Shown here piece after piece: positions 108-350 of a stretch of DNA of 350 nucleotides. Source of the DNA: a phage; the sequence record AF056252.1. One strand, 5' to 3'. The number at the start of each line of letters is the position of its first letter. The stretch's first letter is position 1. Both the position numbers and the translations under genes were made by a program. The notes under the pieces are model-generated. The model searched no databases. It was not told the DNA's origin and saw nothing but the letters and a program-made list of their open reading frames with translations.

Positions 108-114
108 TTGTTGG

Positions 115-120
115 CCTCCC
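115..120 (-). promoter_or_regulatory. Shine-Dalgarno / ribosome-binding site for the minus-strand CDS
   Basis: Plus-strand CCTCCC at 115-120 is GGGAGG on the minus strand, separated by 7 nt (108-114) from the ATG at 107-105. This is a near-ideal SD sequence and spacing for enterobacteria. Confidence 0.6.
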
Positions 121-138
121 TCGTTAATCGGTGAGTGA

Positions 139-168
139 ATGATAAAGGTATTTTCTTTCTAGGGGCAA
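139..168 (-). promoter_or_regulatory. Candidate sigma70 promoter for the minus-strand CDS
   Basis: On the minus strand, TTGCCC (complement of 163-168; 4 of 6 to TTGACA), an 18-bp spacer, then TATCAT (complement of 139-144; 5 of 6 to TATAAT). This would start transcription near 132-136 and give a roughly 25-30 nt leader before the ATG at 107. Hexamer matching by eye only; alternative -10-like hexamers (TAAAAT, complement of 174-179) exist. Confidence 0.3.
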
Positions 169-207
169 ATATTATTTTACCTTTTTATTTTCCTTGCCTA
201 ACGCTTA

Positions 208-236
208 TTTTTATGTTAACCGCGCAGCGGTATAAT
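208..236 (+). promoter_or_regulatory. Candidate sigma70 promoter reading rightward (perfect -10, weak -35)
   Basis: TATAAT at 231-236 is an exact consensus -10. At 17-bp spacing the best -35 is TTTTTA (208-213), only 3 of 6 matches to TTGACA. There is no extended -10 TG (upstream bases are CGG). AT-rich upstream DNA could act as an UP element. Predicted transcription start near 243-244. The target gene would lie beyond the right edge of the window. Confidence 0.4.
219..231. repeat. Short inverted repeat ACCGC-gca-GCGGT directly abutting the -10 hexamer
   Basis: Positions 219-223 ACCGC and 227-231 GCGGT are perfect reverse complements (5-bp arms, 3-bp spacer). It is the only G+C-rich island in the AT-rich region and sits in the spacer/-10 junction of the candidate plus-strand promoter. 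Confidence 0.4.
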
Positions 237-328
237 AAAGAACAAAACACGGCGAAACCACCAGGGCGACGGGTGAAGCTTTACTTTAATATTACCCCAC
301 CGCATTTAGCTCGTTAGAAAGCGTTTAA

Positions 329-347
329 GGGTACCGAACTCGAATTC
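329..347. other. Restriction-site cluster (KpnI GGTACC, SacI-like GAACTC, EcoRI GAATTC) resembling a pUC/M13mp-type polylinker segment
   Basis: 329-347 reads GGGTACCGAACTCGAATTC. From memory, the pUC19 polylinker contains GGGTACCGAGCTCGAATTC, which differs at a single position (G to A inside the SacI site). Identity is based on recall, not a database search. Confidence 0.35.
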
Positions 348-350
348 CAT

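Follow-up and report, generated by a model that had tools for sequence, protein, structure and literature searches.

Most of the window (the whole 350-nucleotide stretch of phage DNA analysed here, AF056252.1) is DNA of a BF23-like Tequintavirus. Positions 5–330 correspond to the terminal repeat, i.e. the pre-early, first-step-transfer region, and comprise the start of a gene 011 ortholog and the left part of a conserved untranslated repeat region. The best match is Escherichia phage BF23 (OR083247), with 98.2% identity over 5–330; 423 phage records match the window, 180 of them over at least 80% of its length. In BF23 the matching stretch is annotated as left terminal repeat; it takes in the start of BF23_00010 together with the long untranslated region ahead of that gene. 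The window agrees with the Tequintavirus terminal repeat both in homology and in synteny with gene 011 and its upstream region. Repeat regions of T5-like terminal repeats have been described (bioRxiv 10.1101/866236). BLAST against RefSeq E. coli genomes, in near and distant modes, gave no match, and BLAST against PLSDB gave chance matches only.

Read on the minus strand, positions 1–107 encode the first 34–35 codons of an ortholog of T5 pre-early gene 011 (BF23_00010, DUF7566), with its ATG at 107–105. Either the edge of the window or a second junction close to position 5 truncates the gene. BF23_00010 itself has 330 residues (Pfam DUF7566, E=1e-112; phrog_4263), and the record of phage AKFV33 notes its ortholog as “Similar to T5.011”. 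T5 gene 011 is reported to be a non-essential but toxic pre-early gene, with an upstream promoter that has been characterised experimentally (bioRxiv 10.64898/2026.04.02.716235). In the window, a ribosome-binding site GGGAGG (120–115, minus strand) lies ahead of the gene 011 ATG, and a consensus scan gave a sigma-70-type promoter-like site at 139–168 on the same strand, with a –35 element TTGCCC (168–163), a spacer of 18 nt and a –10 element TATCAT (144–139). This site falls within the pre-early promoter predicted in the BF23 record (3107–3187, equivalent to window 111–191). The promoter and the start of the T5-type gene 011, both already known, are the sole biology in the window. A tRNA search of the window found none, and the two longest window ORFs were not on record in an exact-protein look-up. 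The sole Rfam match is DapZ-like and probably due to chance; it lies on the plus strand at 113–191, opposite the promoter and leader of gene 011, and scores 25.5 bits where the gathering score is 56 (E=0.018).

The untranslated stretch upstream of gene 011 (225–330) is nearly invariant in 20 T5-like phages and is part of those conserved repeat regions that have been considered in connection with the injection stop signal of T5. Its last 27 bases in BF23 form one arm of an inverted repeat (BF23 record 3302–3328 and 3849–3875) with the partner 520 bases off, 74% complementarity and an 11-base perfect core (GCGTTTTAGGC/GCCTAAAACGC). In the window, this arm is severed by the junction described below.

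The right end of the window resembles a polylinker. The 19-mer GGGTACCGAACTCGAATTC occurs in single copy at 329–347 on the plus strand. The first-pass annotation had likened it to the KpnI–SacI–EcoRI part of the pUC/M13 polylinker at 18 of 19 positions, and this likeness is borne out by the polylinker inside record HM037272 (18/19), by vector sequences and by a published primer (PMC7835838). KpnI (GGTACC, 330–335) and EcoRI (GAATTC, 342–347) are uninterrupted and, as had also been noted, both intact at the vector spacing. The three sites abut in the order and spacing of the vector, with a single change in SacI: positions 336–341 read GAACTC versus GAGCTC in the vector, and the G>A at 338 (plus strand) inactivates the site. 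The intact SacI between EcoRI and KpnI that a pTrc99A-type multiple cloning site (MCS) would have is therefore missing. The likeness starts exactly at GGG, the SmaI half-site, and goes on past 347 to the end of the window at 350 (CAT), giving GAATTCCAT at 342–350, with the rest of NcoI (GG) outside the window.

The MCS of the pTrc99A family, and of derivatives such as pECXT99A, has the order NcoI-EcoRI-SacI-KpnI-SmaI-BamHI and so on, with EcoRI directly preceded by the NcoI start codon (CCATGGAATTC). Measured against vector sequences that were partly checked against database records and a published primer, positions 329–350 are identical to the pTrc99A family (GGGTACCGAGCTCGAATTCCATGG) at 21 of 22 positions, to pUC19 at 19 and to pUC18 at 18. 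A query made from the pTrc99A region was covered by database records piece by piece, with overlaps and at 100% identity, and a primer with GGATCCCCGGGTACCGAGCTCGAATTCCATGG is printed in a primer table that gives CTGCAGGTCGACTCTAGAGGATCCCCGGGTACCGAGCTCGAATTCCATGG for a pTrc99A-family vector (PMC7835838). The choice of pUC/M13 as comparator holds as far as the 18/19 likeness goes, but the best match is of the pTrc99A type (21/22, extending to 350), which owes its lead over pUC/M13 to the CAT that follows EcoRI. These bases (348–350) are the only ones in the window that follow EcoRI, and they discriminate against pUC18, pUC19 and pCC1FOS.

On the minus strand, 329–350 run from the ATG of NcoI through EcoRI (ATG GAA TTC), the altered SacI (GAG tTC) and KpnI (GGT ACC) to a final C at the SmaI half-site. 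A reading frame of 14 codons (MEFEFGTLKRFLTS*, 306–350, minus strand) opens at this ATG and stops in phage DNA, as expected for an insert cloned regardless of frame; on the plus strand, the frame over the tail is shut 5 codons upstream (*KAFKGTELEFH). The last 22 bases are almost certainly left over from the multiple cloning site of a cloning vector.

How far the string itself can bear this conclusion was assessed from base rates. That a chance match was unlikely, as first proposed, is confirmed for random sequence: none of 200 shuffles of the window contained the 19-mer, and the probability of at most one mismatch over 19 positions at one fixed alignment is 58/4^19, or ~2e-10, for uniform random sequence. 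Yet a total of 596 Gb of bacterial and archaeal genome sequence contains 15 copies of the exact window 19-mer (~3.5x the uniform expectation), mostly inside conserved genes; as a native sequence it is rare, not impossible. Several of the 15 copies lie in glutamine-synthetase-family genes encoding GTELEF (contigs L007, L009, L011 and L017; in L011 at 1001–1019, within an ORF of Pfam PF00120). The 23-mer GGTACCGAACTCGAATTCCATGG, one base from the pTrc99A cloning site, was found in a metagenome scan in five contigs, in each case in cydA (cytochrome bd oxidase subunit I; Pfam PF01654), encoding TMEFEFGTNW, and the exact 21-mer GGTACCGAACTCGAATTCCAT (330–350) is native, with no mismatch, in cydA of some proteobacteria. 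The cydA contigs (L037–L041; e.g. L038, with the gene at 9683–11263 and the motif at 9903–9925) are from bacteria of 56–66% G+C. Judged by identity alone, natural cydA would fit 330–350 as well as the vector does. With natural copies in cydA and in glutamine-synthetase-family genes, the 19-mer by itself has no diagnostic value.

Several searches describe how such strings are distributed in public data. The exact junction 32-mer had no match in GTDB genomes and JGI metagenomes, and neither the window 19-mer nor a window-specific 34-mer had one in IMG/VR. No vector variant with GAACTC was found; every exact match to the variant 23-mer in metagenomes is natural cydA. The canonical, unmutated 19-mer is present in nine IMG/VR contigs, eight of which are plain vector remnants beside an abrupt insert boundary, mostly near contig ends. 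These eight (L044–L051), seven of pCC1FOS type (GTGGGATCCCCGGGTACCGAGCTCGAATTCGCCCTATAGTGAGTCGTATTA) and one of pUC18 type, are untrimmed vector in a public viral collection; genuine remnants of this kind are common among public viral sequences. A similar case is the Bacillus thuringiensis plasmid pBMB0558 (HM037272.1, a “complete sequence”), where positions 7600–7657 hold an intact EcoRI-to-HindIII pUC-type polylinker amid A+T-rich native DNA; 14 matching places are listed for this public plasmid record, an indication that remnants of subclones or of vector are present in it.

It is the break in homology, and not the identity of the 19-mer alone, that carries the argument for a vector. When a junction-spanning query (window 296–350, with query base 35 at window 330) was searched, 212 T5-like phage records matched and none covered 80% of it; among the 40 matches listed of these 212, all 40 end at window 330. 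For the tail bases past 330, there is no T5-like match among these 40 listed records or among 20 relatives that were aligned, some just 87% identical overall. The relatives have C at 331 (20/20), C at 332 (19/20) and G at 333 (20/20), where the window has GTA. After GCGTTTTAGG, all 20 go on with native CCGC or GCGG, and the native block CCGCTTAAAATTGATTGCAGTTGTTAAC past 330 is kept for more than 40 nt in 19 of them; the exception, VAH1, shows natural divergence 8 bases beyond the same point. The window bases at 331–333, 336, 339, 341 and 347 are present in none of the 20. Following GCGTTT(T/A)AGG at the junction, the window reads GTACCGAACTCGAATTCCAT, the polylinker having replaced the native BF23 continuation CCGCTTAAAATTG... 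In every relative examined, homology to the window is lost at 330/331.

The similarity to the native locus is lost exactly where the polylinker match starts, as in a vector remnant, and it drops from 98% identity to none within one or two bases of that start, inside a strongly conserved non-coding block. Because the GG at 329–330 is common to BF23 (TTTTAGG/CC) and the vector (CCC/GGGTACC), the exact join between insert and vector is placeable only between 328 and 331. The proposal of a cloning junction, vector contamination or an engineered locus is supported by this break at 330/331, and the comparison with related genomes that had been recommended along with it gave the same answer, with the tail in none of the 20 relatives and all 40 listed matches (of 212) ending at 330.

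The same data bear on a native origin of the tail, in which an unsampled BF23-like phage would have a natural recombination or insertion breakpoint at 330/331 in the untranslated region of its terminal repeat, and the polylinker likeness would be coincidental. T5-like terminal repeats are mosaic here, as the divergence of VAH1 illustrates, an HNH endonuclease gene lies downstream in some relatives at a distance of a few hundred bases, and the exact 19-mer and 23-mer do exist elsewhere as coding sequence. Such an event would, however, have to produce a 21/22 match to one particular MCS (~4e-12 per fixed alignment, uniform) within 1–2 bases of the only homology break, in a sequence of which no aligned relative shares the first bases past 330 and no matching record (0/212) covers 80% of the junction query. 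Furthermore, the window 19-mer is absent from IMG/VR, the frames over the tail are short (on the plus strand a stop comes 5 codons upstream, and the minus-strand frame has 14 codons), and the left edge likewise breaks at the centre of a GGCC. We consider a native phage of this kind very unlikely, and give the same low standing to its corollary, an insertion or replacement from 331 onwards near the DnaA-box repeats proposed to act in the injection stop.

Another route to a natural tail would be an assembly or concatenation chimera of phage DNA and a bacterial cydA, or a similar gene, that natively holds GGTACCGAACTCGAATTCCATGG. Here the identity is exact (21/21 over 330–350 to cydA in five metagenome contigs), but the motif in cydA is preceded by CCAGTT, unlike anything in the window, and the break point would have to hit exactly this 21-mer within a whole bacterial genome. 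Moreover, assembly chimeras need shared k-mers, of which only GG is available, and the cydA genes in question are from bacteria of 56–66% G+C, which are not hosts of T5-like phages. As a native coding motif, the string would be found within a long cydA or glutamine-synthetase-family ORF; in the window the frames are closed and the flank is phage DNA. The probability of a cydA chimera is close to negligible.

If the right end of the window is a cloning junction, the left edge may hold a second one. The first six bases, TTCCCC (1–6), agree at 5 of 6 positions with ATCCCC, the BamHI/SmaI side of the same polylinker, a stretch too short to decide the matter, and the left-flank prediction of ATCCCC fails at position 1. 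The first four bases as a block depart from every relative, and positions 2–4 are unlike all 20, BF23 having TCGG and then CC. A clone model with a BF23 fragment in the SmaI site (ATCCCC + BF23 + GGGTACCGAGCTCGAATTCCAT) shows 8 differences to the window, compared with 21 for contiguous native BF23. Both breaks are at centres of GGCC sites in BF23 (window-equivalent 3–6 and 329–332); GGCC occurs 12 times in 6.3 kb, and a third such site is inside the fragment, at 113–116. An identical junction sequence is predicted by SmaI blunt cloning of 7–328 and by ligation of a partial HaeIII fragment (5–330) to vector ends that had lost 2 nt. The route could have been either of these or a PCR primer with a KpnI tail. 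Other routes were tried and rejected. With a HaeIII fragment placed straight into SmaI, there should be 5 G and 6 C in a row, against the 3 G and 4 C of the window. KpnI cleavage with T4 polymerase polishing predicts CGAGCTC right after the insert, which does not fit. Filled-in BamHI, EcoRI or NcoI ends do not produce the TTCC on the left, and an EcoRI linker (GGAATTCC) suits the left flank, not the right.

A per-column comparison with the 20 relatives places a cluster of changes relative to BF23 at 235–338 (plus strand). The phage part has four changes that none of the relatives shows: two are G>A (242 and 257), and the others are the loss of one G at 277/278 and a T>A at 327. At 235, also G>A relative to BF23, several other relatives have A as well (GCAATA or GTAATA there), and we regard this A as a natural polymorphism on the basis of the alignment. 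The change turns TATAGT of BF23 into a perfect TATAAT (231–236, plus strand), a full hexamer seen only in the window and with no good –35 element upstream. The lost G (274–281, GAAGGCTT to GAAGCTT) creates a new HindIII site, AAGCTT, and could reflect either an error in sequencing through a run of GG or a genuine alteration of the clone. The change in SacI at 338 is a G>A of the same type and on the same strand as those at 242, 257 and 235. One simple reading would be a single error process (polymerase errors, mutagenesis or sequencing errors) that affected all of the chimera once it had been formed; with just four transitions in the same direction, statistical significance is not reached. Because the SacI mismatch is one of several changes private to the window, copying or reading errors are likely to lie behind it.

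Taken as a whole, the evidence makes it a near-certainty that the window is engineered or vector-derived in some way, with a man-made join of polylinker and phage DNA that has no natural function. The specific reading that we favour, and hold to be highly probable, is that the window spans the junction of a cloned BF23-like phage fragment with a vector polylinker. A fragment of ~322–326 bp would have been inserted in a pTrc99A-type polylinker, at or beside the SmaI/KpnI sites, and would carry the gene 011 promoter, the ribosome-binding site, the first 34 codons and ~220 bp of upstream untranslated DNA. Positions 329–350 would then be vector, made up of the SmaI half-site, KpnI, a mutated SacI, EcoRI and the ATG of NcoI. 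Transcription from the trc promoter of the plasmid would cross the 14-codon frame and enter the phage promoter region. The model predicts that the sequence past 350 is GG followed by TCTGTTTCCTGTGTGAAATTGTTATCCGCTCACAATTCC (GG TCTGTTTCCTGTGTGAAATTGTTATCCGCTCACAATTCCACAC...), in which the trc ribosome-binding site and the lac operator are read as reverse complement, and that position 1 is preceded by ...CTGCAGGTCGACTCTAGAGGA. Several observations speak against a vector or a clone: the match is 21/22 and not perfect, with SacI broken; just 22 putative vector bases are in the window, the backbone being beyond its end; the T>A at 327 adjoins the junction and is unaccounted for by cloning; and the VAH1 break 8 bases further on indicates that the neighbourhood tolerates natural mosaic breaks.

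That the vector belongs to the pTrc99A family specifically is a claim to which we attach moderate confidence; the assignment would depend on the three bases CAT. The same junction evidence holds for constructs of other kinds, such as a PCR product tailed with KpnI/EcoRI, another vector or synthetic MCS, or an engineered BF23 or T5 phage with a cassette in the untranslated region. It is only the CAT at 348–350 that points to the vector family, with one SacI mismatch tolerated, the T>A at 327 and an A at 18 fall where primers would anneal, and T5 genome engineering via plasmid templates is in current use. However, a run of 22 bases that keeps the order and spacing of pTrc99A as far as the SmaI half-site is most simply that MCS, and no construct with GAACTC at this place was found, all matches to the variant 23-mer being natural cydA. 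An engineered origin other than a pTrc99A clone is accordingly an unlikely alternative, if a less remote one than a native phage. A literature search for a T5 pre-early or BF23 clone in pTrc99A found none, and the methods of several T5/BF23 papers name pBAD24, pUC19 or pET vectors and not such a construct.

For the cloned fragment that we favour, the consequences concern data hygiene. The window would be a laboratory chimera, which should be masked or taken out ahead of biological interpretation. Otherwise its junction and private substitutions, along with the short MEFEFGT... frame, might pass for variation of the phage or for a small gene not seen before. There is also a caution for vector screens: a short polylinker-like string is no proof, as cydA with its GGTACCGAACTCGAATTCCATGG is a natural false positive, and what decides is the break in homology to relatives.

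Among known systems, the phage part resembles the pre-early region of the BF23/T5 terminal repeat in the gene start, ribosome-binding site and promoter region (98.2% over 5–330), and differs from it in four changes seen in no relative examined and in having a polylinker for the native continuation. The tail shares with natural cydA (TMEFEFGTNW) and glutamine-synthetase-family genes (GTELEF) an exact identity of 21–23 or 19 bases, but there the string is part of a long conserved frame, whereas the window frames are closed within 5–14 codons and the neighbour is phage DNA that is without the CCAGTT preceding the motif in cydA. Beyond the equivalent of position 350, cydA has GG and then T(G/C)A(G/T)(G/A)CCGGT, where the vector has GG and then TCTGTTTCC. 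Vector remnants in IMG/VR (pCC1FOS- and pUC18-type) show the same abrupt boundary between insert and vector, followed by GGGTACCGAGCTCGAATTC and usually by the contig end; unlike in the window, the 19-mer is unmutated and the bases after EcoRI are GCCCTATAGTGAG or GTAATCATGG. The polylinker of pUC18/19 and M13mp18/19 has the KpnI-SacI-EcoRI 19-mer at 18/19, but continues after EcoRI with GTA in pUC18 and ACT in pUC19, against CAT in the window. The pTrc99A-family MCS agrees in order, spacing and sequence (ATG-EcoRI-(SacI)-KpnI-SmaI half-site, 21/22), and the match stops at the position of the SmaI cut, the place for an insert to start; it differs in SacI, GAGCTC in the vector and GAACTC in the window, and the three bases CAT are what would assign the tail to this family.
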